A stretch of 37,549 nt of DNA from Candidatus Omnitrophota bacterium (GTDB lineage: Bacteria > Omnitrophota > Gorgyraeia > Duberdicusellales > 4484-171), in NCBI GenBank assembly GCA_020352775.1, contig CP070684.1:520421-557969 (forward strand). Reading direction: 5' to 3'. Positions 14,796-30,340 of the stretch are shown one piece after another. The stretch's first letter is position 1. Each line of letters starts with the position of its first letter. Below the pieces are notes generated by a model. It did not search any database and was not told the origin of the DNA. It worked only from the letters and a program-made list of their open reading frames with translations. The position numbers and the translations under genes are program-made.

Positions 14796-15548
14796 ATGAA
14801 AATCGTAAGGCTCCTTTATAAAAAAGAAGAATTATGGGGGATACTTAAGAATAACCACATTAATACGGTGCGCAATCACCCTTATCAACGAATAAGATTA
14901 ACTTCTAAACAAATCCTTTTTAAAAAAGTAAAGCTCCTTGCGCCTACAATTCCCACTAAGATTATACTGGCCGGGCTTAACTATAAAGATCATGCGCGGG
15001 AATTAAAGATGAAAATCCCCAAAGAACCGGTGATTTTCCTAAAGCCTCCCACCACAATTGTCGGGCATAATGAGGCAATAGTCTATCCTGAAGGAGTCAA
15101 ACGCCTGGATTATGAGGCAGAATTGGCAGTGGTCATTAAAAAAAGAGCAAGAAATATTTCAGCCCGAAACGCCAAAAAGTATATTTTGGGCTACACCTGT
15201 CTTAATGATGTTACTGCACGGGACTTACAGAAAAAAGACGGTCAATGGACGCGCGCAAAGTCATTTGATACTTTCTGTCCCATTGGGCCCTGGGTTGAGA
15301 CTGATTTTAATCCTGAAAAAGCCAACATTAAGCTTTACGTAAATGGAAAGCTAAAACAAGACTCCTGTACTTCTAATTTTATATTCTCAGTGGATTATCT
15401 TGTTTCATTTATTTCTAAGGTTATGACCCTTTTACCCGGAGACGTCATTTCTAGCGGCACCCCTGCCGGAGTGGGACCGCTTAAAAAACATAATATCGTA
15501 GAGGTTGAAATAAAGGGGATTGGCCGCCTAAGAAATAAGATTATCTGA
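14796..15548 (+). CDS. Fumarylacetoacetate hydrolase family protein
   Basis: GLNY..HA.E, FLKP, DYEAEL, NDVTARD.Q, AKSFDTFCP.GP, GTPAGVG. Confidence 0.92.
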   Translation: MKIVRLLYKKEELWGILKNNHINTVRNHPYQRIRLTSKQILFKKVKLLAPTIPTKIILAGLNYKDHARELKMKIPKEPVIFLKPPTTIVGHNEAIVYPEGVKRLDYEAELAVVIKKRARNISARNAKKYILGYTCLNDVTARDLQKKDGQWTRAKSFDTFCPIGPWVETDFNPEKANIKLYVNGKLKQDSCTSNFIFSVDYLVSFISKVMTLLPGDVISSGTPAGVGPLKKHNIVEVEIKGIGRLRNKII

Positions 15549-15592
15549 ATGCATTCAGGGCCGCGATTATTTAAATGCTTCCATTTTCTTTC

Positions 15593-15620
15593 TTGACAAT
15601 TAGATGCGTATATATATAAT
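15593..15620 (+). promoter_or_regulatory. sigma70 promoter of nfnA-nfnB-gdhA
   Basis: Consensus TTGACA (15593-98), 16 nt spacer, TATAAT (15615-20). Confidence 0.75.
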
Positions 15621-15632
15621 AATAAAACTTTC

Positions 15633-15677
15633 AGGACAAAGGCGTCCTTATGCCAAAGGGGCGCTTTTTTTATTTTT
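15633..15677 (+). promoter_or_regulatory. ANTAR-type RNA hairpin overlapping an intrinsic terminator (module N1)
   Basis: AGGAC-AAAGGC-GTCCT (hexaloop A1/G4, 15633-48), then GCC-AAAGG-GGC; alternative terminator stem GCGTCCTT (15642-49)/AGGGGCGC (15657-64) followed by a T-tract. Confidence 0.75.
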
Positions 15678-15714
15678 GCTCCCTTTAAATGAACTACAAA
15701 TTGCAACGTAAACA

Positions 15715-16575
15715 ATGAAGATACTAACTAAAGAAATACTAGCTCAAACTTCCGATACAAGGATTACCAAAATCGAAATCGAAGCCCCCCTTATAGCCAA
15801 AAAAGTTCAAGCCGGACAATTCGTTCTTTTGATGGTCACTGAAAAAGGGGAAAGAATCCCTTTGACTGTTGTCGGTAACGATCCCCAACGCGAGAGTATA
15901 ACTCTTATTTTTCAGGAAGTTGGGTATTCGACAAAAATTTTAGGTACCTTAAATATCGAAGATTCTCTATATGCCCTTGTCGGTCCCCTGGGACATCCTA
16001 CCCCCATAAAGAATTACGGCAGGATTCTGGTGATTGGAGGCGGGGTAGGAATTGCAGAAATCCTTCCGGTAGCTAAAGCGCTTAAGGAAGCAGGTAATGT
16101 GGTTTATTCGATTCTGGGCGCGCGGACAAAAGAATTACTGATTTTAAAAAATGAAATCAAGAGCTATTCCGATAACCTATATATAGCCACTGATGACGGC
16201 AGTTTAGGGCAAAAAGGATTTGTCAGTAATATTTTAGAAAAAATACTAAAAGAGGATAAGGATTTTCAATTGGTTTACTGCGTGGGTCCGGTTCCGATGA
16301 TGAAAGTCGTTTCTAATGTAACACGGCCTTATAAAATAAAAACATTAGTGTGTTTAAACGCCATTATGCTTGATGCAACAGGAATGTGCGGCGGTTGCCG
16401 TCTCATTGAAGGAGGAAAGGTCAAATTTTGCTGTGTCGACGGGCCGGAGTTTAATGGTCATGAGGTTGATTTTGATGAACTGATGCACCGACAGGGTCGG
16501 TTCATTAATGAAGAGAAAGTATCGTTACGTAAACTCAAACATAAATGCAAACTGGATTCGGGTAAAAAGAAATGA
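15715..16575 (+). CDS. nfnA: NfnA/SudB-like FAD/NAD [2Fe-2S] subunit of electron-bifurcating transhydrogenase
   Basis: GERIPLT, GPLG.P, GGGVG.A, TDDGS.G, GPVPMM, D.TGMCGGCR...CVDGPEF. Confidence 0.82.
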   Translation: MKILTKEILAQTSDTRITKIEIEAPLIAKKVQAGQFVLLMVTEKGERIPLTVVGNDPQRESITLIFQEVGYSTKILGTLNIEDSLYALVGPLGHPTPIKNYGRILVIGGGVGIAEILPVAKALKEAGNVVYSILGARTKELLILKNEIKSYSDNLYIATDDGSLGQKGFVSNILEKILKEDKDFQLVYCVGPVPMMKVVSNVTRPYKIKTLVCLNAIMLDATGMCGGCRLIEGGKVKFCCVDGPEFNGHEVDFDELMHRQGRFINEEKVSLRKLKHKCKLDSGKKK

Positions 16576-17969
16576 AAAGAAAAAAGCCTGAAGGACAAAT
16601 AACAAAAATCCCCTTAAAGCAAAGGAGACGTACGTTTACGGAAGTCTCCAGGGGTTTTAGCCTCCCGGAGGCACTTAAGGAAGCATGCCGCTGTCTTCAA
16701 TGTAAAGAGCCAATGTGTAAGGCGGGTTGTCCGGCAGGCATTGACATTAAAGAATTTATCAGACTAATCCAGGAAAAAAACTATATGGGTGCAGTTAAGA
16801 AAATAAAAGAGACTAATAATTTGCCGGGAGTATGTGGCCGGGTGTGCCCCCAGGAAGAACAATGCCAGCTTTACTGTATCTTAAAGAATAAAGGCAATGC
16901 TATCAAAATCGGGTACCTGGAAAGGTTTGTGGCTGATTGGGAGCTTGAGCACGCAGTGCAATATAGAGTGGCACATATTCAGCAGCAAAAACCAACTAAG
17001 GTTGCAGTAATTGGTTCAGGGCCAGCTGGCCTTACCTGCGCAGCGGATTTAGTCCAAGAAGGATTTGAAGTTCATTTATTTGAAGCATTGCACAAACCCG
17101 GTGGAGTTCTTGTGTATGGCATCCCAGAATTCAGACTTCCTAAACATATCGTTAACGAAGAGGTAGATTATATTGAAAGTCTGGGGGTTGCGGTTCATAA
17201 AAACTTTTTGGTCGGCAGAACTAAAACTATTGATGAGTTAAAAAATGAAGGGTTTAAAGCTTTTTTTATCGGAGTAGGAGCCGGGGCACCTAAATTTTTA
17301 GGGATTCCGGGTGAGATTTTAAATGGGGTTTATTCGGCAAATGAATTCCTTACCCGGGTTAATTTAATGAAAGGTTATCGTTTTCCGGAATATGATACCC
17401 CGGTAACAGTGGGTAAAATAGTCGGCGTATTTGGGGGAGGAAACGTTGCTTTTGACTGCGCGCGTTCAGCATTACGTTTAGGTGCAGCTAAAGTTTGTAT
17501 GATTTATCGCCGTACTGAAACGGAAATGCCGGCACGGGATGAAGAAATAGAAAATGCAAAAGAAGAAGGTATAAAACTTCGCCTTTTAGTTTCACCTAAA
17601 GAGTTTATTGCCGATAAAAAAGGTAATATAAAAGGAGTGCGCTGTATTAAAAATAAGCTTGGTGAACCGGATTCATCCGGCAGGCGCTCACCTGTTCCTA
17701 TTCAAGGCTCGAAATTTACCATTAAAATTGATACCGCCATTGTAGCCATCGGCACCATGGCGAATCCGCTCCTGCTTCAGACAATCCCAGGGTTAGAGTT
17801 AACCTCAAAAGGTTACATTAATGTGAATGATAATTACCAGACTTCGGTTCCGGATATTTTTGCCGGGGGAGATATTGTAAGCGGTTCGGCAACTGTAATA
17901 AGCGCAATCCAGCAGGCAAAGCTTGCTGCCAAATCCATAAAAGATTATCTTAGCGCCAGCGGCGCTTAA
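16572..17969 (+). CDS. nfnB: NfnB/SudA (GltD-like) NADPH flavoprotein with two Fe-S clusters
   Basis: RCLQC...C..GCP, CGRVCPQE.QC...C, GSGPAGL, YGIPEFRLPK, GGGNVA.D, AGGD; ATGA overlap with nfnA. Confidence 0.82.
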   Translation: MKRKKPEGQITKIPLKQRRRTFTEVSRGFSLPEALKEACRCLQCKEPMCKAGCPAGIDIKEFIRLIQEKNYMGAVKKIKETNNLPGVCGRVCPQEEQCQLYCILKNKGNAIKIGYLERFVADWELEHAVQYRVAHIQQQKPTKVAVIGSGPAGLTCAADLVQEGFEVHLFEALHKPGGVLVYGIPEFRLPKHIVNEEVDYIESLGVAVHKNFLVGRTKTIDELKNEGFKAFFIGVGAGAPKFLGIPGEILNGVYSANEFLTRVNLMKGYRFPEYDTPVTVGKIVGVFGGGNVAFDCARSALRLGAAKVCMIYRRTETEMPARDEEIENAKEEGIKLRLLVSPKEFIADKKGNIKGVRCIKNKLGEPDSSGRRSPVPIQGSKFTIKIDTAIVAIGTMANPLLLQTIPGLELTSKGYINVNDNYQTSVPDIFAGGDIVSGSATVISAIQQAKLAAKSIKDYLSASGA

Positions 17970-18027
17970 GCGATTTCTATACGGCGACAGCATTTGTCGG
18001 TTTTAATTGTTGAGTAGTAATATCTAA

Positions 18028-19371
<1,344 letters not shown>

Positions 19372-19410
19372 GGCAAAAAGGGATTAAAAATTTAAGAGAT
19401 GTAAAAGAAC

Positions 19411-19439
19411 TTGACAAATTTAAAATAGTGTGTTATATT
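19411..19439 (+). promoter_or_regulatory. sigma70 promoter of the glutamate-synthase-like gene leader
   Basis: TTGACA (19411-16), 17 nt spacer, extended TG.TATATT (19431-39). Confidence 0.7.
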
Positions 19440-19447
19440 TCTTCTAC

Positions 19448-19509
19448 GAAACACAAAGGTTGTGTTTCTTGGAAAGGACAAGGACGTTAAAAAAAGACGT
19501 CCTTTTTTT
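19448..19509 (+). promoter_or_regulatory. ANTAR dual hairpin plus terminator (module G1)
   Basis: P1 GAAACAC-AAAGGTT-GTGTTTC; P2 GAC-AAGGAC-GTT (A1/G4); terminator AAGGACGT (19480-87)/ACGTCCTT (19497-504) plus T-tract sequesters P2. Confidence 0.75.
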
Positions 19510-19526
19510 ATTTTTAGGTCCTTTCA

Positions 19527-19593
19527 TTCAAAGTTAGAAAACCGGATAATGGCGTCCTTTTTGACAGCAAAGACTGTTGGGGGGCGTTTTTTT
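19527..19593 (+). promoter_or_regulatory. ANTAR hairpin plus terminator (module G2)
   Basis: Weak P1 TTC-AAAGTTA-GAA; P2 GGAT-AATGGC-GTCC (19544-57); terminator GCGTCCT..TTGACAG-CAAAGA-CTGTTGG-GGGGCGT plus T7. Confidence 0.72.
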
Positions 19594-19598
19594 ATTTA

Positions 19599-19692
19599 GT
19601 CAATAACTTGCGTTTTTAAGGCGGGTTATTGACACGTTATAGGACGATGGCGTTCTAAGCCTGAACCAAAGGCATGGAACGCTATTTTTTTT
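19599..19692 (+). promoter_or_regulatory. Long hairpin, ANTAR hairpin and terminator (module G3)
   Basis: GTCAATAACTTGC...GCGGGTTATTGAC stem (19599-633); AGGAC-GATGGC-GTTCT (19641-56); terminator TGGCGTTCTA (19648-57)/TGGAACGCTA (19675-84) plus T8. Confidence 0.72.
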
Positions 19693-19721
19693 GAGTCGAT
19701 ATACAGCAAAAGGAGGTAAAA

Positions 19722-21344
19722 ATGAATTTACAACAACCAAACGCAAACGAGGCATTACAAACTGCCAACCGCTCCAGGAGCGTATCGCCCCTATCGGGAA
19801 TTTGCACGCGTTGCATCGACGGCTGCCGGGGAAATTGTGATATTTTCAAGGCAACATTTAGGGGCCGGGAAGTGATTTATCCTGGGCCTTATGGCGCGGT
19901 GACTGCCGGCGGGGATAAGAATTATCCTCTGGATTACTCTCATCTTAACATTCAGGGCTATGCGATGGATGCTAAGGGTCTTCCTGAAGGGGTTGAGGCT
20001 AATCCTGATACTGCTACGTTCCCTGCGGTTGATACCGAAACTGATTATGGCTGGAATAAAAAGGTAAAAATGTGCGTACCTATTTTTACTGGTGCCCTTG
20101 GTTCTACGGAAATTGCACGAAGAAACTGGGAGCATTTTGCAGTGGGTGCTGCGATTTCAGGAATTACTCTGGTTTGCGGAGAAAATGTTTGTGGAATCGA
20201 CCCTAAATTAGAGCTAGATTCCAACGGAAAAATAAAAAAAGCACCTGATATGGATCGTAGAATTGAAGTTTATAAAAGATTCCACGAAGGCTATGGAGAG
20301 ATTTTGGTCCAGATGAACGTTGAAGATACCCGTTTAGGTGTTGCGGAATACGTAAGAAAAAAACATAATCTGGAAACCATTGAACTTAAATGGGGCCAGG
20401 GCGCAAAGTGCATCGGTGGTGAGATTAAGGTTAACACCATTGAACGAGCCCGGGAACTTAAAAAACGCGGTTACATTGTCACCCCCGACCCTACCTTGCA
20501 TTCGGTTCAAGAAGCATACCGGGTAGGGGAAATCAAAGAGTTTGAGCGTCATTCCCGTTTGGGATTTGTAACCGAAGGGGCTTTCTTCGATGAAATCCAA
20601 CGGTTAAGAGATTTAGGCTTTAAGCGCATAACCTTAAAAACCGGAGCTTATCCGATGCGCGAATTAGCCATGGCAATTAAATATTCATCACTTGCAGGAA
20701 TTGATCTTCTTACAGTTGATGGTGCAGGGGGCGGAACAGGAATGAGTCCCTGGAGAATGATGCAAGAGTGGGGTGTGCCTACTTTTTATCTGCAATCCAT
20801 GACTTATGAAATCTGCGAGAAACTTAAGAAAAAAGGCATGCGTGTTCCGGATATTGCCATTGCCGGCGGCTTTTCATCGGAAGACCATGTGTTTAAAGTG
20901 CTTGCAATGGGAGCTCCTTACGTAAAAGCAGTTTGTATGGGGCGCGCACTTATGATTCCGGGTATGGTTGGTAAAAATATCGGGGAATGGATTAAAAACA
21001 ATGATTTGCCTAAAACAGTTTCAACCTATGGCAGCACCCCCGAGGAAATCTTTATCGGATATGAAGAATTAATAGATAAATACGGTAAAGAAATGAAAAA
21101 TATCCCTCTGGGTGCAGTGGGAGTTTACTGCTTCACTCAGAAAATAAAGGTCGGCTTGCAGCAACTTATGGCCGGCAGCAGAAATTTTAGGATAAACAGT
21201 ATTTCAAGAAAAGACCTGATGTGTCTCACTGAAGAAGCAGCAAAGGTATCCGGGATACCTTATGTAATGGATGCTTACCGCAAAGAGGCAGAACAAATTT
21301 TGGACAGCGAAGTGAAAGCTCGGTTTAAAGCTGTAAAACACTAA
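19722..21344 (+). CDS. Stand-alone FMN-binding glutamate synthase family protein with an N-terminal 4-Cys motif
   Basis: IELKWGQGAK..GG, DGAGGGTG, AGG......FK..AMGA; CTRCIDGCRGNC; no amidotransferase domain; SD AAGGAGGT. Confidence 0.85.
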   Translation: MNLQQPNANEALQTANRSRSVSPLSGICTRCIDGCRGNCDIFKATFRGREVIYPGPYGAVTAGGDKNYPLDYSHLNIQGYAMDAKGLPEGVEANPDTATFPAVDTETDYGWNKKVKMCVPIFTGALGSTEIARRNWEHFAVGAAISGITLVCGENVCGIDPKLELDSNGKIKKAPDMDRRIEVYKRFHEGYGEILVQMNVEDTRLGVAEYVRKKHNLETIELKWGQGAKCIGGEIKVNTIERARELKKRGYIVTPDPTLHSVQEAYRVGEIKEFERHSRLGFVTEGAFFDEIQRLRDLGFKRITLKTGAYPMRELAMAIKYSSLAGIDLLTVDGAGGGTGMSPWRMMQEWGVPTFYLQSMTYEICEKLKKKGMRVPDIAIAGGFSSEDHVFKVLAMGAPYVKAVCMGRALMIPGMVGKNIGEWIKNNDLPKTVSTYGSTPEEIFIGYEELIDKYGKEMKNIPLGAVGVYCFTQKIKVGLQQLMAGSRNFRINSISRKDLMCLTEEAAKVSGIPYVMDAYRKEAEQILDSEVKARFKAVKH

Positions 21345-21355
21345 ATATTCCTACA

Positions 21356-21377
21356 CCCCTTCTTGATAAAGAAGGGG
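21356..21377 (+). other. Intergenic stem-loop without T-tract (possible mRNA stability/processing element)
   Basis: CCCCTTCTT-GATA-AAGAAGGGG perfect 9-bp stem. Confidence 0.5.
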
Positions 21378-21400
21378 AGCGTGCAAACAGGAGGCGAAGC

Positions 21401-21559
21401 ATGAATGACAAAGGTCTGTGTCTAACATGTGCATATGATAAACGCTGCTTTTTCCCGCGAAAATACCCTGTATTTGAATGTACTGAGTTTTCAGCGGTAA
21501 AAGTCAAGCCAGCAGCGCTGAAACGAAAGAAAATCAAAAGAAAACATCCATCCTGTTAA
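21401..21559 (+). CDS. Small Cys-rich protein, 52 aa (not in the ORF track)
   Basis: AGGAGG at 21389-94, 6 nt before ATG; MNDKGLCLTCAYDKRCFFPRKYPVFECTEFSAVKVKPAALKRKKIKRKHPSC*; Cx2C-x5-C-x10-C plus a basic tail. Confidence 0.7.
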   Translation: MNDKGLCLTCAYDKRCFFPRKYPVFECTEFSAVKVKPAALKRKKIKRKHPSC

Positions 21560-21606
21560 GCAATAGGCAAGCCCCCAGACCCCTTAATCATCCGTAAAAA
21601 GGATTC

Positions 21607-21634
21607 TTGATTTAATAAAAAACCCTGTTAAAAT
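21607..21634 (+). promoter_or_regulatory. Putative sigma70 promoter of glnA
   Basis: TTGATT (21607-12), 16 nt spacer, TG.TAAAAT (21626-34). Confidence 0.5.
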
Positions 21635-21686
21635 ATCTTTCTTGATAAGCGTATGATTACTTACGATAAAATTCGGAGGAAATAGA

Positions 21687-23006
21687 ATGACACGGCAAAT
21701 GCTGCTAAAAACTGTAAAAAGCAAAAAGGTAGGGTTTGTGCGTCTCTGGTTTACGGATGTGTTAGGGTTTTTAAAAAGCTTTGATATGCCTGTCGAAGAG
21801 CTGGCCGGAGCACTGAAGGACGGTATGGGCTTTGATGGTTCATCTATCGAAGGTTTTTCGCGGATCGAAGAATCAGATATGGTGGTAAAGCCTGACCCGA
21901 ACACCTTTCAACTTCTGCCCTGGATTGAAGAAGATAGGCCTGTGGCGAGAATGTTTTGCGATGTGGTGGAGCCGGGAGGAAAGCCCTTTACCGGTGATCC
22001 GCGCTATGTCTTAAAAAGAAATTTAGAAGAAGCTAAACGTATGGGGTTTACTTTTTACGTAGGGCCGGAACTGGAATATTTTTATTTTCGCAATAAAGGT
22101 GGGACCCAGATTCTTGATCGCGGAGGTTATTTTGATCTTACTCCTATGGATATTGGACAAGATTTGAGGCGTCAAACCGTGGTGATGCTTGAGAAAATGG
22201 GCATTGATGTTGAATATTGGCATCATGAAGTAGCGTCGTCGCAACACGAAATCGATTTGCGCTACAACGACGCGCTTGCTATGGCCGATGGTGTTATGAC
22301 CTATCGTATGATAGTAAAAGAAGTAGCAATGCAGAACAATCTTTATGCTACATTTATGCCAAAACCGATATACGGGATAAATGGAAGCGGCATGCACACG
22401 CATATGTCATTGTTTAAAGGAAACCGAAATGCTTTCTTCGATCCGAACGATAAATATCATCTCTCAAAAATAGCTAAATACTTTATTGCCGGATTATTGA
22501 AACATGCCCGGGAAATTTGTTCAGTTTGCTGTCAGTGGGTAAATTCCTATAAGCGATTAGTTCCCGGCCATGAAGCTCCGGTTTATGTCTCTTGGGCGCA
22601 AAAAAACCGCTCGGCCCTTGTCCGTGTCCCTGTATATAAACCAGGAAAAGAAAAAGCAACACGCGTTGAATTGCGCAATCCAGATCCTGCCTGCAATCCC
22701 TATCTGGCGTTTGCGGTGATGCTGGCGGCAGGGTTAGAAGGCATCAAAAGAAAATACCCTTTAGCGAAAGAGGTGTCCAGCAATATTTACGAAATGACTG
22801 AAAATGAAAGGAAAAATGTCGGAATAGAATCTTTGCCCGATGATTTATTTGAAGCAATCAATATCACTGAAAAAAGTGCGTTGGTGAGAAAAGCTTTAGG
22901 AGATAAAGTCTTTGAATTCTTTATCCGCAACAAGAAGGATGAATGGAGTGACTATCGAAAGCAAATTACGAAGTATGAGCTGGATAAATATCTCCCGATT
23001 CTGTAA
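21687..23006 (+). CDS. glnA: Glutamine synthetase type I (alpha-like, 439 aa)
   Basis: FDGSSIEGF.RI.ESDM, GPELEY, HHEVA..QHEI, TFMPKP..GINGSGMH.H.SL, NSYKRLVPG.EAP, ELR.PDP.CNPYL. Confidence 0.96.
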   Translation: MTRQMLLKTVKSKKVGFVRLWFTDVLGFLKSFDMPVEELAGALKDGMGFDGSSIEGFSRIEESDMVVKPDPNTFQLLPWIEEDRPVARMFCDVVEPGGKPFTGDPRYVLKRNLEEAKRMGFTFYVGPELEYFYFRNKGGTQILDRGGYFDLTPMDIGQDLRRQTVVMLEKMGIDVEYWHHEVASSQHEIDLRYNDALAMADGVMTYRMIVKEVAMQNNLYATFMPKPIYGINGSGMHTHMSLFKGNRNAFFDPNDKYHLSKIAKYFIAGLLKHAREICSVCCQWVNSYKRLVPGHEAPVYVSWAQKNRSALVRVPVYKPGKEKATRVELRNPDPACNPYLAFAVMLAAGLEGIKRKYPLAKEVSSNIYEMTENERKNVGIESLPDDLFEAINITEKSALVRKALGDKVFEFFIRNKKDEWSDYRKQITKYELDKYLPIL

Positions 23007-23068
23007 ACTTACACCTTGAGATTAAAATTATTGTATACTCACTCCTGTAGCCTTAAATCTACAAAAAC

Positions 23069-23773
23069 ATGCCAAAGGCATCTTACAAAGAATATATCAA
23101 TACTCTAAGCAAAATCAGCAAAGCGATCACCTCTGAGCTATACCTGGAGGATGTGCTTAAGCTAATTGTTACCCTTACTGCGAATGTAATGAAGGCCAAG
23201 ATCTGCTCACTCTGGCTTCTGGATAAAAATACAAAAGAACTGAAAATAAGAGCCACTCAAGCCATGGGGCAGGAGTATTTAAAAGAACGCAGCCTCAGAT
23301 TAGGAGAGGGTATCGTGGGATTGGTCGCAAAAGAAAAAAAACCAATTGTGATTCTTGATGTTGTAAAGGATCTTAAATACAAAGAGAAACAGCTTGCAAA
23401 AAAAGAAGGTCTGATTTCGATGTTGAGTGTACCGATGATGGTAAAGAAAAAAGTGGTCGGAGTAATAAACCTTTACACCACCACTCCTTATAAATTCAGC
23501 AAAAGCGATATCGATCTTTTAAGTGCTGTTGCCAATCAGGCTGCGGTGGCAATTGAAAATACTGAGCTGATGGTTAAAACTAGAATTATCCAGGAGGAGC
23601 TAGATACCAGAAAGAAGGTAGAGCGGGCAAAGGGAATATTGATGAACGAGCAAAGCCTGACCGAAGAAGAGGCTTATAATCTTATTCGTAAATCCAGCAT
23701 GAACAAACGTGTTCCTATGAAAGATATTGCCGAGGCCATAATTCTTTCTCATGAAATTAAAGGTAATAAATAA
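23069..23773 (+). CDS. GAF-ANTAR one-component RNA-binding antiterminator
   Basis: N-terminal GAF (GEGIVG.VA, SMLSVP, VGVINL, ANQAAVAIEN) and C-terminal ANTAR (RKKVERAKGILM....LTEEEAY.LIRK.SM..R..MKDIAEAI). Confidence 0.93.
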   Translation: MPKASYKEYINTLSKISKAITSELYLEDVLKLIVTLTANVMKAKICSLWLLDKNTKELKIRATQAMGQEYLKERSLRLGEGIVGLVAKEKKPIVILDVVKDLKYKEKQLAKKEGLISMLSVPMMVKKKVVGVINLYTTTPYKFSKSDIDLLSAVANQAAVAIENTELMVKTRIIQEELDTRKKVERAKGILMNEQSLTEEEAYNLIRKSSMNKRVPMKDIAEAIILSHEIKGNK

Positions 23774-23784
23774 AGGAGGGTAAG

Positions 23785-24021
23785 ATGCCTTACAATCAGC
23801 AACTAGACGAGTGTTTGTTTACCAAAGCCTGGGAAGGTGAAGCAACAAGGTTAACCGTTAGTGTTTACTCTTACAATAAAGGACCTAAAAAGCTACAAAT
23901 TGTAAGGGAGAATAAAGACACCGAAGGCAATTTTAGGTTTACCCGCTTGGGCAGAATCAGCAAAGAGGAGCTTGAGGCTATTCTTCCTTTGATTAAGGAA
24001 GCGCAAGGTAACTTGGAGTAG
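23785..24021 (+). CDS. Small hypothetical protein, possibly a PC4/YdbC-like nucleic-acid-binding fold
   Basis: SD AAGGAGG; predicted beta-rich N-part (VSVYSYN.G.KKLQI.R) followed by a C-terminal helix (ISKEELEAIL). The fold call is inference. Confidence 0.7.
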   Translation: MPYNQQLDECLFTKAWEGEATRLTVSVYSYNKGPKKLQIVRENKDTEGNFRFTRLGRISKEELEAILPLIKEAQGNLE

Positions 24022-24049
24022 ATTTCTACCATCGGTTTTCGGAAAATTA

Positions 24050-24077
24050 TTGACAAGTAATTTTTTTGTGGTATAGT
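24050..24077 (+). promoter_or_regulatory. sigma70 promoter of the carB leader
   Basis: TTGACA (24050-55), 16 nt spacer, TG.TATAGT (24069-77). Confidence 0.7.
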
Positions 24078-24097
24078 TCCTTTGAAATATCGTGAAT

Positions 24098-24160
24098 TTC
24101 TACAAAGACAGTGGAAGAAAAAGGCAAAGAAGCCCCCGGTAAAATGACGGGGGTTTTTTT
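24098..24160 (+). promoter_or_regulatory. ANTAR dual hairpin plus terminator (module C1)
   Basis: P1 TTCTAC-AAAGACA-GTGGAA; P2 GGC-AAAGAA-GCC (A1/G4 hexaloop, 24123-34); terminator GCCCCCG (24132-38)/CGGGGGT (24148-54) plus T-tract. Confidence 0.8.
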
Positions 24161-24162
24161 CT

Positions 24163-24249
24163 GTCAATAAGCATTAGAGTGGATTGATGCATTGAGTAGG
24201 ACGATGGCGTCCTTCTTGCTACGGCGCAGTAGAGGGACGCTTTATTCTT
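24163..24249 (+). promoter_or_regulatory. Long hairpin, ANTAR hairpin and terminator (module C2)
   Basis: TCAAT..GCATTAG-AGTGGA-TTGATGC-ATTGA; AGGAC-GATGGC-GTCCT (24198-213); terminator GCGTCCTTCT (24207-16)/AGAGGGACGC (24231-40) plus TTTATTCTT. Confidence 0.75.
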
Positions 24250-24283
24250 ATCTGAGAGTTTTTATTAATGAAGGAGAGCGGTA

Positions 24284-27200
24284 ATGCCAAGACGCAAAGA
24301 TATTAAAAAGGTATTGATTATCGGTTCCGGGCCGATCATTATCGGACAGGCCTGTGAATTTGATTATTCCGGTACTCAGGCTTGTAAGGCATTAAAAGAA
24401 GAAGGCTATGAGGTCGTGTTGGTCAATTCCAACCCCGCTACGATCATGACTGACCCTGGTATGGCTCACAAAACATATATCGCGCCCCTTACGGTTGAAA
24501 GCCTTGAAAAAATCATCGAAAAAGAAAAACCTGATGCTCTTCTTCCTAATCTAGGCGGCCAGACCGGTCTTAATCTAGCCTCGAACCTCTATAAGGCTGG
24601 GATTTTAGATAAATACAAGGTGGAGGTTATTGGGGTTAAGGCAGATGCGATTGAGCGCGGCGAAGACCGTCTTATTTTTAAAGAAACCATGAATAAGTTG
24701 GGGATTCCTTTGCCTAAATCTGAGATTAGCCGCTCAATCCAGGAGGCAGAGGCTATCGCGGAGAGGTTAAAATACCCAGTGGTATTGCGCCCTGCCTATA
24801 CTCTGGGCGGAACCGGCGGAGGAATTGCTTACAACATCGAAGAACTAAGAACTATTGTCAGCAGGGGTCTTTCCGCAAGCATTGTTAATCAAGTCTTGGT
24901 AGAAGAGGCGGTGATTGGCTGGGAAGAGTTAGAACTTGAAGTAGTGCGTGATGAAAAAAATCAAAAGATAACGGTCTGCTTTATTGAAAACATCGATGCG
25001 ATGGGTGTACATACCGGTGACAGTTTCTGTGCGGCACCGATGCTTACCGTGCCTGAAAAATTACAGAAAAAGATGCAGGAATATTCCTATAAGATTGTCG
25101 ATGCCATTGGAGTGGTGGGCGGAACAAATATCCAATTTGCTCACAATTTAGAAGATGATCGATTGGTGGTAATTGAAATCAATCCTCGTACTTCCCGTTC
25201 GTCAGCTCTTGCTTCTAAAGCAACCGGCTTTCCTATTGCAAGAATTTCAACTAAGCTTGCCGCAGGTTTAAGTATGGATGAAATCCCTTATTGGCGAAAA
25301 GGTACGCTTGAGAAATACGAACCCTGGGGAGATTATGTGGTTATTAAGTTTGCGCGTTGGGCTTTTGAGAAATTCCCCAAAGCCAAAGACATCCTCGGAA
25401 CCCAAATGAAGGCTGTGGGGGAGGTAATGAGTATTGGTAAGAATTTTAAGGAAGCTTTCCAGAAGGCTATTCGTTCTTTGGAGATAAAACGTTATGGTTT
25501 AGGGCTGTCTAAATTTAAAGAGCTTGACTTTGCAGAGCTTCAAGCAAGGCTTACTTTTCCTTCCAGCGAACGCATATTTTTGGTATACGAAGCTTTGCGC
25601 AGAGGTATATCCGTAGAAGAACTCTATAAGGTGACCCATATCGGACGCTGGTTCATCAATGAAATGAAGGAGCTGGTCGAACTTGAAGAATACCTGCTAA
25701 CCAAGAGCTGGAATGATTTGCCAGCTAAAGATTTAGCTAAAGCAAAAGAATGGGGTTTTTCAGACCGGTGCCTGGCAGATATTTTTGGCATCGCCGAGGC
25801 GCAAATAAGAAACAGAAGGATTGAGATCGGTAAAGCCGGCTGCTTTGATGCAGTGCCGGTAAGCGGAGTGGAAAACGCCGCTTATTATTATTCCACTTAT
25901 AATGGTGAGGATAAGGTGCCGGTATCATCCAATAAAAAGATAATGATTTTAGGAGGGGGGCCTAACCGTATTGGTCAGGGTATTGAGTTTGACTATACCT
26001 GTGTTCATGCGGCATTTGCTTTGCGCGATGAAGGCTATGAATCCATCATGATAAACTGTAATCCTGAAACGGTCTCAACTGACTATGATACATCAAATAA
26101 GCTTTATTTTGAACCGTTAACAGTAGAAGATGTCTTGACCATCTATGAAAAAGAAAAGCCCGAAGGTGTGATTGTACAATTCGGGGGACAAACCCCGTTA
26201 AATATCGCTCAAGAGTTAAAAGATAACGGGGTAAATATTTTAGGAACCTCTCCCGAAAGTATTCGTTTAGCAGAAGACCGGGAATATTTTCGAAAGAGGA
26301 TGCTTGAATTAAATGTCCCTCAGCCTGAAGGTGGCACTGCTCGTTCACTCCATGAGGCGATCGAGATTGCCAACAAAATAGGGTACCCACTTATGGTGCG
26401 GCCATCATTTGTTTTGGGCGGTCGAGGAATGGAGATTATTTACGATGAGATAATGTTAAAAAGATATGCTCAAGAAGCTATTCAGGTCAGCCCTGAATAC
26501 CCCATGCTCATTGACCGCTTTCTGGAGCAGGCAATCGAGGCTGAAGTTGATGCTCTTTCAGACGGCCAAGATATTTTTATTGCTGCGGTTATGGAACATA
26601 TCGAATTAGCAGGTGTACATTCTGGTGATTCCGCATGTGCGATTCCACCCCGGACCCTTAAAGAAAAACACCTGAGTGATATTAAAAAGTATACTGCTCA
26701 AATCGCTAAAGAACTTAAAGTTGTGGGGCTTATGAATATTCAATATGCGATACACGAAAACAAAGTGTACATCCTAGAAGCGAATCCGCGGGCTTCACGT
26801 ACGGTTCCTTTAGTATCCAAGGTGACCGGAGCACCGATTGCACGCATTGCTACTCAGATTATGCTCGGAAAAAAAATAAAAGATTTTCCGGAATTAAAAA
26901 AGTGCACCCCTCGTTTCGTGGGGGTTAAAGAGGCAGTATTTCCGTTTAATATGTTTCCGGAGGTCGACCCCTTATTGGGTCCGGAAATGCGAGCAACCGG
27001 TGAAGTTATGGGTATGGCTGATACTTTTGGCCTTGCGTTTTATCTTGCTGAAGAAGCTGCCGGCTCAAAACTACCCATTGAAGGAAATGCGCTTCTTACT
27101 GTAGCTGATAAAGATAAAAAGTTTTTACTTCCCATTGCGCAGCGTCTTAAGAAGCTGGGATTTAATATTTATGCTACTGAAAGAACTAGCAAGTTCTTGA

Positions 27201-27520
27201 AAGAAAACAAGATTGAAAACACCGAAATCAAGAAAGTACACGAAGGACGCCCCAATATCGTTGATGCTATTAAAAACAAGGATATCAATCTTATTATCAA
27301 CACGCCTGTGGGGCGCAGCTCCAAATACGACGACAGCCACATCCGTATTATGGCCATACAACACAAAGTTCCCTACATTACATCAATGGCCGCTGCCCAA
27401 GCTAGTGTGGAAGGGATCGAGGTAACAAAAAAAGGTAAAATCTTGCCCAAAGCACTGCAAGATTATTATAAAGATAACTCATTTGCCGAAAAAAGTCAAA
27501 AAGCATGTAAGAAATCGTGA
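24284..27520 (+). CDS. carB: Carbamoyl-phosphate synthase large subunit
   Basis: IGSGPIIIGQACEFDYSG, IEINPRTSRSSALASKATGFPIA, GGGPNRIGQGIEFDY, NPRASRTVP and a C-terminal MGS-like domain. Confidence 0.97.
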   Translation: MPRRKDIKKVLIIGSGPIIIGQACEFDYSGTQACKALKEEGYEVVLVNSNPATIMTDPGMAHKTYIAPLTVESLEKIIEKEKPDALLPNLGGQTGLNLASNLYKAGILDKYKVEVIGVKADAIERGEDRLIFKETMNKLGIPLPKSEISRSIQEAEAIAERLKYPVVLRPAYTLGGTGGGIAYNIEELRTIVSRGLSASIVNQVLVEEAVIGWEELELEVVRDEKNQKITVCFIENIDAMGVHTGDSFCAAPMLTVPEKLQKKMQEYSYKIVDAIGVVGGTNIQFAHNLEDDRLVVIEINPRTSRSSALASKATGFPIARISTKLAAGLSMDEIPYWRKGTLEKYEPWGDYVVIKFARWAFEKFPKAKDILGTQMKAVGEVMSIGKNFKEAFQKAIRSLEIKRYGLGLSKFKELDFAELQARLTFPSSERIFLVYEALRRGISVEELYKVTHIGRWFINEMKELVELEEYLLTKSWNDLPAKDLAKAKEWGFSDRCLADIFGIAEAQIRNRRIEIGKAGCFDAVPVSGVENAAYYYSTYNGEDKVPVSSNKKIMILGGGPNRIGQGIEFDYTCVHAAFALRDEGYESIMINCNPETVSTDYDTSNKLYFEPLTVEDVLTIYEKEKPEGVIVQFGGQTPLNIAQELKDNGVNILGTSPESIRLAEDREYFRKRMLELNVPQPEGGTARSLHEAIEIANKIGYPLMVRPSFVLGGRGMEIIYDEIMLKRYAQEAIQVSPEYPMLIDRFLEQAIEAEVDALSDGQDIFIAAVMEHIELAGVHSGDSACAIPPRTLKEKHLSDIKKYTAQIAKELKVVGLMNIQYAIHENKVYILEANPRASRTVPLVSKVTGAPIARIATQIMLGKKIKDFPELKKCTPRFVGVKEAVFPFNMFPEVDPLLGPEMRATGEVMGMADTFGLAFYLAEEAAGSKLPIEGNALLTVADKDKKFLLPIAQRLKKLGFNIYATERTSKFLKENKIENTEIKKVHEGRPNIVDAIKNKDINLIINTPVGRSSKYDDSHIRIMAIQHKVPYITSMAAAQASVEGIEVTKKGKILPKALQDYYKDNSFAEKSQKACKKS

Positions 27521-27574
27521 TCGCACAACAAAATATGATACCAAGATTGGATAGATCCTAAACGGAGGATAGAT

Positions 27575-29086
27575 ATGAAGATAGGATTTGATAATGAGAA
27601 ATATTTAAAAGAACAGACTCATGCGATCCTTGAAAGAGTTAAAAAATTCAACAATAAATTATACTTAGAGTTCGGCGGTAAAATTATCTTTGATTATCAT
27701 GCCTCGCGCGTTTTGCCCGGTTTTGACCCCAATGTGAAGATGAGGTTATTACAGAAACTCAAAGATAAGGCAGATATCATTCTGTGCATTTACTCCGGCG
27801 ACATTGAAAGACGAAAAGTAAGAGCAGATTTCGGCATCACTTATGACGTTGATGCCATGAAGTTGATTGATGATTTGCGGGATTGGGGCATTGATGTTCG
27901 GGCAGTGGTAATAACCCGCTTTGATGATCAGCCCTCAGCCATAATATTTAAAAACAAGCTGGAACGCCGGGGCGTAAAAGTATATACCCACCGCTTTACA
28001 AAAGGATATCCCACCGACATCGATACAATTGTAAGCGATGAAGGCTATGGCGCCAATGCTTATATTGAGACCACTAACCCTTTAGTTATTGTTACTGCGC
28101 CCGGTCCCGGAAGCGGAAAGCTGGCCACCTGCCTTTCACAGTTATACCACGAGAACAAACACGGCATAAAAGCCGGATATGCAAAATTTGAGACTTTTCC
28201 CATTTGGAACCTGGCGCTTAAGCATCCGGTGAATGTGGCATATGAGGCCGCTACTGCCGATATCAGAGATTTTAATATGATTGATCCCTTTCACCTTACG
28301 GCCTACAAAAAGACAACTGTTAACTATAACCGTGATGTGGAGGTATTCCCAGTACTTAAACGAATACTTGAAAAAATAACTGGTTCAGAATCAATATACA
28401 AATCTCCCACTGATATGGGGGTAAATCGTGCTGGATTTGGCATCGTTGACGATAAAAGGGTGCAGCTAGCCGCAAAACAAGAAGTAATCCGAAGGTATTT
28501 CCGGTATCAATGCGAATACATGATGGGGTTTGTGGATAAGGAAACTGTTCAGCGTGCCGAGCTTATAATGGAGGAATTGGGCGTAAAACCTGCTGACCGA
28601 ACCACCGTAGAGCAGGCACGCCAGGCCGCAAGCGAGGCTCAAGAAAAAGGCAAGGGAAACAATGGTATTTTCTGTGGGGCAGCAATAGAGCTAAAAAACG
28701 GCACAATTATAACCGGAAAAAATTCTACACTCATGCATGCCACCTCCAGTCTTATCTTAAATGCTATAAAGCAATTGGCTGATATCCCGGATAAAATACA
28801 CCTTCTTTCACCCAATATAATTGATTCCATAGGGGTCCTCAAAAAGGATACCTTGTCCTCAAAAAGCGTAAGTTTAGATTTGGAGGAAACCCTCATCGCT
28901 TTAAGCATCAGCGCTGCCACAAATCCATCAGCACAGCTTGCGATGCAAGGTCTAAAAGAACTTAGCGGTTGCGAGGTACATATTACGCATATTCCTACGC
29001 CAGGAGATGAGGCTGGCCTAAGAAGCCTGGGCGTTAACTTAACCAGCGATCCGCAGTTTTCCAGTCACAGTCTATTTGTGGGGTAG
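27575..29086 (+). CDS. DUF1846 / UPF0371 family protein (P-loop-containing)
   Basis: [59 protein letters not shown]; family recognised from memory. Confidence 0.85.
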
Positions 29087-29118
29087 AGAGCTTTGTTGAT
29101 ATTGTTTGACGGCATGAA

Positions 29119-30234
29119 ATGATCGACAACGAGATTACGATAATCGGTGCTGGGGTAATCGGGCTGGCGATTGCCGATAAGCTTTCCGAGAGCGGCAAAA
29201 ATATTGTCGTGCTCGATAAAGAACCCACTTTCGGGCAAGAAATAAGCTCCAGAAATTCCGAGGTAATTCATGCTGGCCTCTATTACCCTCCTAATTCCTT
29301 AAAAGCCAAAACCTGTATTAGAGGAAGAGAGCTATTGTATGACTTGTGTCAAACGCATAATATCGGACACAAAAAACTGGGTAAATTAGTGGTAGCATCA
29401 AATGATGCTGAAATTGAAAAAATAGAAAAGATTTATGAAAATGCCACTCAATGCGGTGTTAAGAATCTAAGATTACTGAAGGAAAAAGAAATCAGTGAGC
29501 TTGAACCAGCGGTTTGTGCAAAAGAAGCCATATTTTCACCGGACTCAGGGATAATAGATACTCACGCTCTTATGGATTTCTTCTTTCATAAAGCCAAAGA
29601 AAAAGGGGTAATGTTTTCCTTTTCTACAGAGGTAATTGGTGTAAAAAAACAAAATAATGATTACGAAATAACAGTAAAAGAACCCTCTGGGGAGACTTTT
29701 GCGTTTATAACTCCTACTGTTATAAATTCAGCCGGGCTATACGCTGACAAAATTGCGCAAATGCCCGGTATAAACATCGAGGATGCAGCTTATAAGCTTC
29801 ACTATTGCAAAGGACAGTATTTTCGAATCGCCCATCCTAAAAAATTTTCTATAAATCATCTTGTATACCCCCCCGCAACTAAAATTGATTTAGGCATACA
29901 TCTAACACTGGATTTAGGCGGAGGTCTACGGCTTGGGCCGGATGCTAAATATATACCCAGTATTGATTACAATATTAATGAAGCAGACAGCGCTTATTTT
30001 TATGAGTCAGTACAGAAATTCTTACCTTCCTTAAGCCAGGATGATTTAATACCTGATACCGCCGGTATTAGGCCCAAATTGCAGAAAGAAACAGAAGATT
30101 TCAGGGATTTTGTGATAAACGAGGAGAGTGATAAAGGCTTTGGGAGATTTATTAATCTTATTGGCATTGAATCGCCCGGACTCACAGGATGTTTAGCTAT
30201 CGCAGAAATCGTTGAGAAGCTCGCCAATACCTAA
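29119..30234 (+). CDS. FAD-dependent oxidoreductase, L-2-hydroxyglutarate oxidase (LhgO)-like
   Basis: IGAGVIGLA, SSRNSEVIHAG.YYP..SLKA, KGQYF, LG.H.T.DL.G..R.GPD, GIRPK, GIESPGLT. Confidence 0.85.
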   Translation: MIDNEITIIGAGVIGLAIADKLSESGKNIVVLDKEPTFGQEISSRNSEVIHAGLYYPPNSLKAKTCIRGRELLYDLCQTHNIGHKKLGKLVVASNDAEIEKIEKIYENATQCGVKNLRLLKEKEISELEPAVCAKEAIFSPDSGIIDTHALMDFFFHKAKEKGVMFSFSTEVIGVKKQNNDYEITVKEPSGETFAFITPTVINSAGLYADKIAQMPGINIEDAAYKLHYCKGQYFRIAHPKKFSINHLVYPPATKIDLGIHLTLDLGGGLRLGPDAKYIPSIDYNINEADSAYFYESVQKFLPSLSQDDLIPDTAGIRPKLQKETEDFRDFVINEESDKGFGRFINLIGIESPGLTGCLAIAEIVEKLANT

Positions 30235-30340
30235 GATAAAAAAATCTATATATATAGTGGTAGCATCCAGGTTTTTATGATATAATTCATAATTGAAAGC
30301 TGTAATTAGCCAAGCGCCTAATATCCTATGGAGGTGGAGA

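Follow-up and report, generated by a model that had tools for sequence, protein, structure and literature searches.

A stretch of 37,549 nucleotides (nt) from the Candidatus Omnitrophota metagenome-assembled genome (MAG) GCA_020352775.1 (contig CP070684.1, positions 520,421 to 557,969), referred to as the window, contains a gene for a GAF-ANTAR protein next to glnA and three leaders with six short hairpins, which precede an nfnA-like operon ending with gdhA, a gltS-like gene and an operon beginning with carB. The host genome consists of one contig of 1.275 Mb with 39.6% G+C and is 84.6% complete. Genes of the window were called from the open reading frame (ORF) listing and by Pfam and NCBIfam searches, and those listed in Table 1 are all located on the plus strand. 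An earlier note on this DNA, made from the sequence alone, had proposed that a locally encoded one-component GAF-ANTAR protein acts here by antitermination. This proposal is supported by the presence of a single ANTAR gene in the host genome (profile search), by the A1/G4 hexaloops, by the covariation of the hairpin stems, by the co-occurrence of motif and gene, and by the location of sites near ANTAR genes. The sites are most probably ANTAR-type transcription attenuators, which would form an Omnitrophota nitrogen regulon under the one-component GAF-ANTAR protein.

Table 1. Genes, promoter-like sequences and attenuators of the window, further R1 sites of the host genome (contig C1) and loci of the second GAF-ANTAR paralogue in relatives.
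Feature	Position	Strand	Evidence and details
Promoter-like TTGACA-16-TATAAT, nfnA-like/gltA-like/gdhA operon	15593-15620	+	12/12 consensus
Attenuator 1, hairpin AGGAC-AAAGGC-GTCCT (15633-15648)	15633-15671	+	RNA fold; R1 E 2.8e-6; terminator GCGTCC 15642-15647 pairs with GGGCGC 15659-15664; T-tract 15665-15671
nfnA-like FAD/NAD/[2Fe-2S] protein	15715-16575	+	Pfam, NCBIfam NF004862 (368 vs cut-off 220 bits)
nfnB/GltD/GltA-type oxidoreductase	16572-17969	+	Pfam, TIGR01316 'gltA' (559 vs cut-off 472 bits)
gdhA, NADP-specific	18043-19371	+	Pfam, NCBIfam; closes the nfnA-like operon (15715-19371)
Promoter-like TTGACA-17-TATATT with TG extension, gltS-like gene	19411-19439	+	11/12 consensus
Attenuator 2a (weak), hairpin GAC-AAGGAC-GTT (19477-19488), 3 bp including one G-U	19476-19510	+	RNA fold; R1 E 0.14, 23 bits, match placed at 19473; terminator AAGGACGUU/GACGUCCUU engulfs the entire hexaloop
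Attenuator 2b, hairpin GGAT-AATGGC-GTCC (19544-19557)	19544-19593	+	Overlapping terminator, T-tract 19587-19593; R1 E 1.6e-5
Attenuator 2c, hairpin AGGAC-GATGGC-GTTCT (19641-19656)	19641-19692	+	Terminator GCGTTC/GAACGC, T-tract 19684-19692; R1 E 1.6e-5
gltS-like, 540 amino acids, glutamate-synthase FMN domain	19722-21344	+	PF01645
glnA, type I glutamine synthetase, 5' neighbour of the regulator gene	21687-23006	+	Pfam, NCBIfam
GAF-ANTAR regulator, 234 amino acids	23069-23773	+	Pfam, NCBIfam
Promoter-like TTGACA-16-TATAGT, carB operon	24050-24077	+	11/12 consensus
Attenuator 3a (class B), hairpin GGC-AAAGAA-GCC (24123-24134)	24123-24160	+	Terminator CCCCCG/CGGGGG, T-tract 24154-24160
Attenuator 3b, hairpin AGGAC-GATGGC-GTCCT (24198-24213)	24198-24249	+	Terminator GCGTCC/GGACGC, then TTTATTCTT, T-tract about 24241-24249; R1 E 9.7e-7, the best of the genome
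carB, first gene of operon 24284-30234	24284-27520	+	Pfam, NCBIfam
DUF1846 protein, carB operon	27575-29086	+	NCBIfam 'hypothetical protein' equivalog, 791 bits
FAD oxidase, DAO/L-2-hydroxyglutarate-oxidase type, carB operon	29119-30234	+	Pfam, NCBIfam
R1 site upstream of purL-purF	C1:1125677		R1
R1 site upstream of nagB-like (glucosamine-6-phosphate deaminase) gene	C1:679501		R1; family confirmed on an orthologue
GAF-ANTAR paralogue locus	G002:C1:739221-740092		
GAF-ANTAR paralogue locus	G007:C46:3439-4492		
GAF-ANTAR paralogue locus	G016:C66:215-1256		
GAF-ANTAR paralogue locus	G021:C30:7029-7902		

The three TTGACA promoters noticed earlier upstream of the leaders matched the consensus at 11-12 of 12 positions and were the top three of 33 promoter-like sites in a scan of positions 15000-31000, each being located just 5' of its leader. 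Reading of the sequence gave the same six hairpins and loops as first described, with G4 in 6/6 and A1 in 4/6 hexaloops. The near-identical core of four of them, GGAYRAWGGCGTYC, was present in four exact copies in the window (15634, 19544, 19642 and 24199), all on the plus strand and all in leaders, and was absent from 100 dinucleotide shuffles. The folding of the leaders that the earlier note had called for showed, as the minimum-free-energy structure of all six units, a terminator with a T-tract that reuses the 3' arm of the hairpin as its own 5' arm, hairpin and terminator being mutually exclusive. The terminators of the window folded at -12.3 to -23.5 kcal/mol (-12 to -32 kcal/mol for the sites of the host genome overall) and the first 21 nt, containing the hairpin region, alone at -0.2 to -8.1 kcal/mol. 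It had been stated that in every case the loop and the 3' arm double as the 5' arm of the terminator; this holds for the five class A sites of the window, where the terminator 5' arm also takes in the end of the loop, and not for the class B site at 24123, where no more than the terminal bases of the 3' arm are shared. Three of the six units (15638, 19480 and 19557) were detected by a terminator scan, and the other three escaped it because their loops exceed the length that the scan allows.

A covariance model, R1, with the terminator as its structure, was built from 18 seed sites (five from the host genome and 13 from loci of relatives). Searching the 1.28 Mb host genome with R1 resulted in six strong sites (E ≤ 1.6e-5), all on the sense strand in leaders, four of them in the window (E 1e-6 to 1.6e-5). 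The other two, upstream of purL-purF and of the nagB-like gene, bring the attenuator sites of the genome, with the six window hairpins, to eight. Both have TTGACA-16-TATATT immediately 5', as read from the sequence, and their hairpins begin a few bases past the likely transcript start, which leaves no space for an upstream partner hairpin. No R1 match was found before glnA in the host genome. A loop-agnostic scan of the host genome, which accepted 4-bp hairpins with a hexaloop of whatever sequence if a terminator overlapped them, gave 34 candidates, five of which were class A sites; the remaining ones look like chance matches, being G-U rich and many of them apparently outside leaders. The same scan of the relatives' loci was not used as evidence, because these loci had been fetched around motif matches and are biased. 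For class B (GGC-AANGNA-GCC followed by a terminator), the expression GGC[AG]ANGNNGCC matched 17 positions of the host genome, with a terminator only at the carB leader. Class B was found in 11 further places in the relatives' loci, usually as the first unit 3' of an ANTAR gene, as in the window.

To extend the analysis to homologous leaders, 40 relatives, represented by incomplete MAGs, were searched with R1 at E ≤ 0.01 and their genes predicted with a simple ORF caller. Matches were found in 32 of 41 genomes including the host, and 76 matches from 31 of the 40 relatives were kept after removal of an antisense duplicate (G032:C40:294-342:-). Addition of seven host-genome sites gave 83 sites, and exclusion of a site at the end of contig G036:C13, without downstream ORF and identical in sequence to G036:C4:157826, left 82 unique sites, with the consensus RGAC-ANNGRC-GTCY followed by a terminator. 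As R1 models the terminator and leaves the 5' arm of the hairpin unpaired, pairing of the hairpin among the matches is not imposed by the model. At stem pair 2 the 82 sites showed G-C in 52, A-U in 15, G-U in 14 and A-C in one, and at the outer pair 1 G-C in 41 and A-U in 19, with 18 unpaired; U-G was present in 8/82 closing pairs. For each of pairs 1 and 2 the observed number of paired sites was reached in 0/2000 shuffles, and 89% of the stem cells were paired vs 40-53% when the partner was slid by one to three columns. The 67 non-seed sites behaved alike, and the seed alignment agrees. The sites found with a covariance model, an approach suggested in the earlier note, showed both covariation of the stem and conservation of the hairpin. 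The loop showed A1 in 70/82, G4 in 82/82 and C6 in 76/82 sites. In 18/18 seeds there is also pairing between loop position 5 and the final base of the terminator 3' arm (G-C 11, A-U 5, G-U 2, read from the alignment), in support of the terminator.

The idea that the hexaloops act in tandem pairs was not borne out, each hairpin having its own terminator. The stretch between the hairpin and the 3' arm of the terminator measured 2-32 nt (median 21) and was in many sites too short for a second hairpin. In 14/82 sites it contained a further hairpin, with 3 bp or more and a hexaloop carrying a purine at position 1 and G4, compared with 5.3 ± 2.2 after shuffling. One leader, located about 130 nt upstream of a gltS-like start in G025 (locus L177, contig C6), showed by eye two adjacent hairpins, AGC-AAAGAA-GCT and GAGC-AAAGGA-GCTC, both lying within one terminator. 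It resembles a canonical dual ANTAR site, and the regulator of this genome is 55% identical to that of the window.

A same-strand downstream ORF starts within 150 nt of 73/82 sites. The first downstream gene, assigned by clustering and Pfam, was most commonly gltS-like (18 sites in 14 genomes), followed by nfnA-like (12 in 12), PII (8 in 7, one fused to an amino-acid permease), a protein of 250-297 amino acids without Pfam match (5 in 4), nagB (4 in 4), and gdhA, purL, carB and a LuxR-type regulator (3 in 3 each). Two sites each preceded genes for a BBP2 porin (one genome), type III glutamine synthetase (GSIII), carA, glnA and amtB (two genomes each) and a GAF-ANTAR paralogue (one genome), and single sites preceded gltB, pyrG, nifH, purS and a Fis-type helix-turn-helix (HTH) gene. 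A few small target ORFs received no assignment; at G002:C1:739943 and 740037 small, probably spurious ORFs were picked, the real gene being the GAF-ANTAR paralogue at 739221-739904. Judged by gene content, the predicted target set of the R1 sites is a nitrogen regulon. All members of the target set first proposed (nfnA-like-gdhA, gltS-like and carB) have attenuators; the regulon is wider than that set, including purL-purF, the nagB-like gene and, in relatives, a full nitrogen set.

When gltS-like orthologous loci were picked by gene and not by motif, 16 of 24 had an upstream site at E ≤ 1e-3, which was directly upstream of the gene in 14 and upstream of an operon starting with an ANTAR paralogue in two. 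Four more of these loci had weaker or variant sites, seen by eye or in earlier searches. In G014, a genome without ANTAR gene, the gltS-like leader keeps the TTGACA promoter and has no attenuator.

Some of the targets in relatives have features of their own. Downstream of a class A attenuator in G015 (contig C2, L146:413-2335) lies a gene for a fusion protein of 641 amino acids, in which an amino-acid permease is joined to a C-terminal PII domain. The protein of 250-297 amino acids (L095:1404-2294; G033, G034, G037 and G038) has a signal-peptide-like N-terminus and is possibly a channel through which a nitrogen compound crosses the outer membrane. Four relatives (Table 1) have an additional GAF-ANTAR gene, whose product is a paralogue with 57-64% identity to the window protein; one to three class A attenuators lie upstream of each copy. 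A gltS-like gene is located 3' of it in G002, G007 and G021, with a Fis-type HTH gene intervening in G007. This arrangement looks like a regulatory cascade or autoregulation.

The distribution of the motif and the ANTAR gene was then compared in 151 genomes of the phylum, counting R1 matches at E ≤ 1e-3. Of these genomes, 99 had an ANTAR gene and 45 had the motif. The motif was present in 43/99 genomes with an ANTAR gene vs 2/52 without (Fisher p = 6e-8, which overstates the association because related genomes are not independent). By hand count, an R1 match and the ANTAR gene were on one contig and no more than 10 kb apart in 22 of the 42 other genomes holding both. One family of the phylum (f30) had an ANTAR gene in 23/51 genomes and an R1 match in only 2/51; its targets, if any, must look different. 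In G018 the minus strand 3' of the ANTAR gene (contig C3, L004:480-1520) has a hairpin resembling class B, GGC-AAAGGG-GCC, together with a degenerate one resembling class A, and the amtB-like frame that follows these hairpins appears interrupted. This genome may be losing the regulon.

Several observations weigh against an attenuator regulon read by the GAF-ANTAR protein. The seed sites were picked by a script demanding pairing, and, as G4 and C6 were already present in the seeds, there is some circularity in their invariance among the matches. The E-values of R1 are rough, coming from a short calibration, and stricter filters applied whenever more than 40 genomes were searched. The sites lack the P1-linker-P2 arrangement that defines the canonical dual-hairpin target. 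R1 matches were present and no ANTAR gene was found in G037 (94% complete), in G083 and, with one match, in G009 (86% complete), and 56/99 ANTAR-bearing genomes had no R1 match at E ≤ 1e-3. Two genomes, G018 and G006, had none even at E ≤ 1, with orthologues 78-80% identical. Among the sequencing runs listed for positions 15500-25000 were two DNA sediment-metagenome runs of one study and a further run sharing almost nothing with this DNA, and no RNA run. Domain similarity and the gene content of relatives are the basis for the proposed ligand and direction of control, and the targets of the host (gdhA, carB, purL/purF and nagB) would equally fit induction at plentiful nitrogen.

Part of this evidence would be explained if the attenuators were real and read by another trans-acting factor (a small RNA or some RNA-binding protein), and if the GAF-ANTAR protein had its targets elsewhere. 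The genomes with sites and no detected ANTAR gene, together with the ANTAR genomes lacking R1 matches, fit such a reader. Nevertheless, the A1/G4 loop is a known determinant of ANTAR recognition (PMC3369931, PMC8934654), the ANTAR protein GnfR is reported to bind an almost identical hairpin (PMC2995071), and in many genomes the sites directly adjoin ANTAR genes, which makes a different reader unlikely. CsrA was considered as the reader and rejected: no CsrA was found in the host genome (84.6% complete), and it is disfavoured by the GGA of the 5' arm, which is not conserved and covaries to AGAC/AAAC.

The hairpin sequence GGAC-N6-GTCC could also be an inverted repeat serving as DNA operator for a dimeric transcription factor, with the terminators being incidental. 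The motif is palindromic and in three leaders (nfnA-like, purL and nagB-like) lies 5-15 bp past the -10 box, which would suit an operator. Such a role is very improbable in view of the frequent G-U and U-G pairs, the covarying half-sites, the conserved asymmetric loop and the strict location of the sites on the sense strand. Moreover, up to three serial units with their own T-tracts occur at a distance from the promoter (19544 and 19641 vs 19411), and loop position 5 pairs with the end of the terminator 3' arm in all seeds. Comparably improbable is that the elements are unregulated leader terminators or pause sites for constitutive dampening, whose likeness to ANTAR targets reflects ancestry without current function. 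The degenerate copies beside the broken amtB-like region of G018 could be taken in this sense; on the other side, compensatory changes keep a weak hairpin of 4-5 bp that has no role in termination, and several families and classes of the phylum have retained the element ahead of functionally coherent nitrogen genes. Metabolite-sensing riboswitches, which are likewise cis-acting terminator-antiterminator units before metabolic genes, are the least probable of these explanations, as the conserved part of only about 16 nt with unconserved linkers of 2-32 nt is too small for an aptamer, and Rfam gave no family at gathering score across the whole window and no match at E ≤ 1 in the leaders, the only one at this threshold in 15400-24400 being a chance long non-coding RNA match within a coding region.

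In agreement with the antitermination by an ANTAR protein preferred here, the gene claimed at 23069-23773 was found to encode a GAF domain (PF13185, 80.8 bits) and an ANTAR domain (PF03861, 73 bits vs cut-off 27.3); Pfam detected these two domains only and no Response_reg domain. The ANTAR domain aligned to EutV (E 4e-11), Rv1626 (4.9e-10), NasR (1.5e-6) and AmiR (5e-3). Residue Y203, the sole Tyr in its stretch, aligned with the Tyr of the EutV EEAY motif, with a chain numbering offset of 2. A protein match was obtained in 40/40 relatives, and orthologues of 72-80% identity in 26/40. The nearest solved structures to the GAF domain were the PtsP GAF 3ci6 (E 4.6e-17) and 3trc, and its best partial NCBIfam matches were PtsP (5.5e-20) and NifA (8e-17), at the domain level only, since both scores fall far short of the full-length cut-offs (71 vs 583 bits and 61 vs 529 bits, respectively). 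The JGI name for the relatives' proteins is 'signal transduction protein with GAF and PtsI domain'. Neither PII (PF00543) nor the ammonium transporter AmtB (PF00909) was found in the host genome (84.6% complete), and the attenuator precedes both in relatives.

The NifA GAF domain binds 2-oxoglutarate, and glutamine and 2-oxoglutarate act on EI-Ntr of E. coli. Glutamine is reported to bind EI-Ntr at its GAF domain (PMC4848567). From the resemblance to PtsP and NifA, this binding of glutamine and the apparent absence of PII and AmtB, we tentatively suggest, as the somewhat less probable outcome, that the GAF domain senses glutamine and/or 2-oxoglutarate directly.

The mechanism proposed from the folds and the protein is as follows. 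Each target operon would be driven by a strong constitutive sigma-70-type promoter, and a hairpin of 3-5 bp with an A-N-N-G-R-C hexaloop would form within tens of bases of the transcript start. For the main class, a far more stable intrinsic terminator would have as its 5' arm the final two bases of the loop together with the 3' arm of the hairpin; for the GGC-AANGNA-GCC class, the overlap would be limited to the terminal bases of the 3' arm. By default the terminator would prevail and transcription would halt. In its RNA-binding state the GAF-ANTAR protein, encoded beside glnA, would clamp the hexaloop hairpin, with G4 stacking on Y203, thereby withholding the 5' arm of the terminator and allowing readthrough by RNA polymerase. 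Serial units, three in the gltS-like leader and two in the carB leader, would sharpen the response. The single PtsP/NifA-type GAF domain may read a nitrogen metabolite (such as glutamine and/or 2-oxoglutarate) directly, in which case no kinase and perhaps no PII would be needed in the host genome. From these features we infer that the protein binds the hairpins, what its ligand is and in which direction it exerts control. As to the direction, we are inclined to expect readthrough when nitrogen is limiting, since in relatives the element precedes amtB, PII, glnA, GSIII, gltB and nifH.

A broader joint reading, which is unlikely to hold in all its parts, can be formulated. A PtsP-type GAF-ANTAR protein directly sensing glutamine and/or 2-oxoglutarate would be the master nitrogen regulator of much of Omnitrophota, operating in this reduced genome without PII and AmtB, and its single-hexaloop attenuators would represent in vivo what the EutV structure suggested as a minimal hexaloop. 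The system would couple nitrogen status to assimilation, to glutamine-consuming nucleotide synthesis (carA/carB, purL/purF/purS and pyrG) and to amino-sugar deamination (nagB), with the attenuated paralogue adding a cascade in some lineages.

Among the other features of the window, the small and large oxidoreductases of the nfnA-like operon have domains fitting NfnAB, the NADH-dependent ferredoxin:NADP oxidoreductase. The NCBIfam names were sulfide/dihydroorotate dehydrogenase-like FAD/NAD-binding protein and NADPH-dependent glutamate synthase of the GltA type, and the designation nfnAB for the pair is plausible. carB is not adjoined by carA, and the DUF1846 gene and the FAD oxidase gene related to L-2-hydroxyglutarate oxidase are unusual operon partners for it. 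Two small ORFs without Pfam match were observed: a 52-codon, cysteine-rich ORF (four Cys; 21401-21559) with a GGAGG Shine-Dalgarno-like sequence 5', between the gltS-like gene and glnA, and a 78-codon ORF (23785-24021) with a strong AGGAGG ribosome-binding site, between the GAF-ANTAR gene and the carB promoter. For sigma-54 activators the host genome gave one strong match (C1:309060) and two weaker ones.

With a protein of 234 amino acids, an RNA target of 16 nt and eight sites in a small genome, the system is a compact and very well conserved test case, the protein showing 72-88% identity in many Omnitrophota. It would reveal how a one-component metabolite sensor drives an ANTAR domain and whether a single hexaloop suffices in vivo. 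The map of sites is the first regulatory map of nitrogen metabolism for an uncultivated phylum of ultra-small cells, and the regulon content could be used to infer nitrogen status from metatranscriptomes. The small size of its parts suggests a possible synthetic ligand-controlled terminator switch.

The suggestion in the earlier note that such a target set might be undescribed was too strong, as it is preceded by the predictions of Ramesh 2012 (PMC3369931) and by GnfR of Geobacter (PMC2995071). Ramesh 2012 predicted multi-operon ANTAR nitrogen regulons in Desulfotomaculum reducens, D. acetoxidans and Pelobacter, with glutamate synthase, glutamine and arginine synthesis, PII, amtB and nitrogenase as targets (PMC3369931). 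Those predictions concern other phyla and a dual-hairpin model, and their overlap with the present targets may be larger in the supplementary tables. ANTAR control of nitrogen genes is established for Geobacter and was broadly predicted in 2012, and an antiterminator gene beside glnA is known in Clostridium. Ramesh 2012 states that GAF-ANTAR proteins had not been characterised (PMC3369931), and the accessible part of a 2025 review mentions GAF only in a domain legend (PMC12591593). Our literature search, whose scope did not include the 2012 supplementary tables, found no characterised GAF-ANTAR protein, PtsP-type ones included. It found no paper naming ANTAR and Omnitrophota together (whole-word search), no single-hexaloop attenuator as a general regulon design, and no purine/pyrimidine amidotransferase or nagB targets. 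The GAF sensor, the single-hexaloop design, the occurrence in Omnitrophota and the nucleotide-synthesis and nagB targets were not found in print and appear to be new.

The closest known system is that of Geobacter, where GnfR is reported to bind CAGGCAANGGCGCC, overlapping the terminators of nifH, glnK and amtB (PMC2995071). We read this sequence as GGC-AANGGC-GCC, that is, with the loop of class A and the stem of class B. Both systems would combine an ANTAR protein, one hairpin per terminator, nitrogen genes and the same loop consensus. GnfR is described as a receiver-ANTAR protein phosphorylated by the kinase GnfK and acting at sigma-54 promoters under GnfL/GnfM (PMC2995071), whereas here a GAF sensor without receiver domain is found together with sigma-70-type-looking promoters. 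For EutV/EutW of Enterococcus faecalis the common features are the ANTAR domain, the A1/G4 hexaloops, the exclusion of the terminator and the G4-stacking tyrosine. The canonical ANTAR target was defined as a pair of hexaloop hairpins (Ramesh 2012, PMC3369931), the eut sites having the P1-linker-P2 order with the terminator overlapping P2 and EutV being a response regulator. A single hexaloop was later identified as the minimal target, with G4 stacking on Tyr164 of EutV (Walshe 2022, PMC8934654). In NasR of Klebsiella oxytoca, as in the present protein, a one-component ligand sensor is joined to ANTAR and nitrogen assimilation is controlled by antitermination (PMC12591593, PMC3369931). The NasR sensor is a NIT domain binding nitrate/nitrite, and a single target operon is described, compared with GAF and at least five operons here. 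Unlike the eut sites, those of the window have a single hairpin overlapping the terminator. The Stutz/Reid work reportedly concerned Clostridium nitR. In C. acetobutylicum/saccharobutylicum the nitR antiterminator gene is likewise located beside glnA and is implicated in the control of nitrogen assimilation, in a system that includes an antisense RNA (PMC4676874; compared with the GAF-ANTAR protein by description, not by sequence or domains). Finally, PtsP (EI-Ntr) and NifA carry the GAF domains nearest to that of the regulator, whose output would be the ANTAR domain and not a phosphotransferase or an AAA+ activator.

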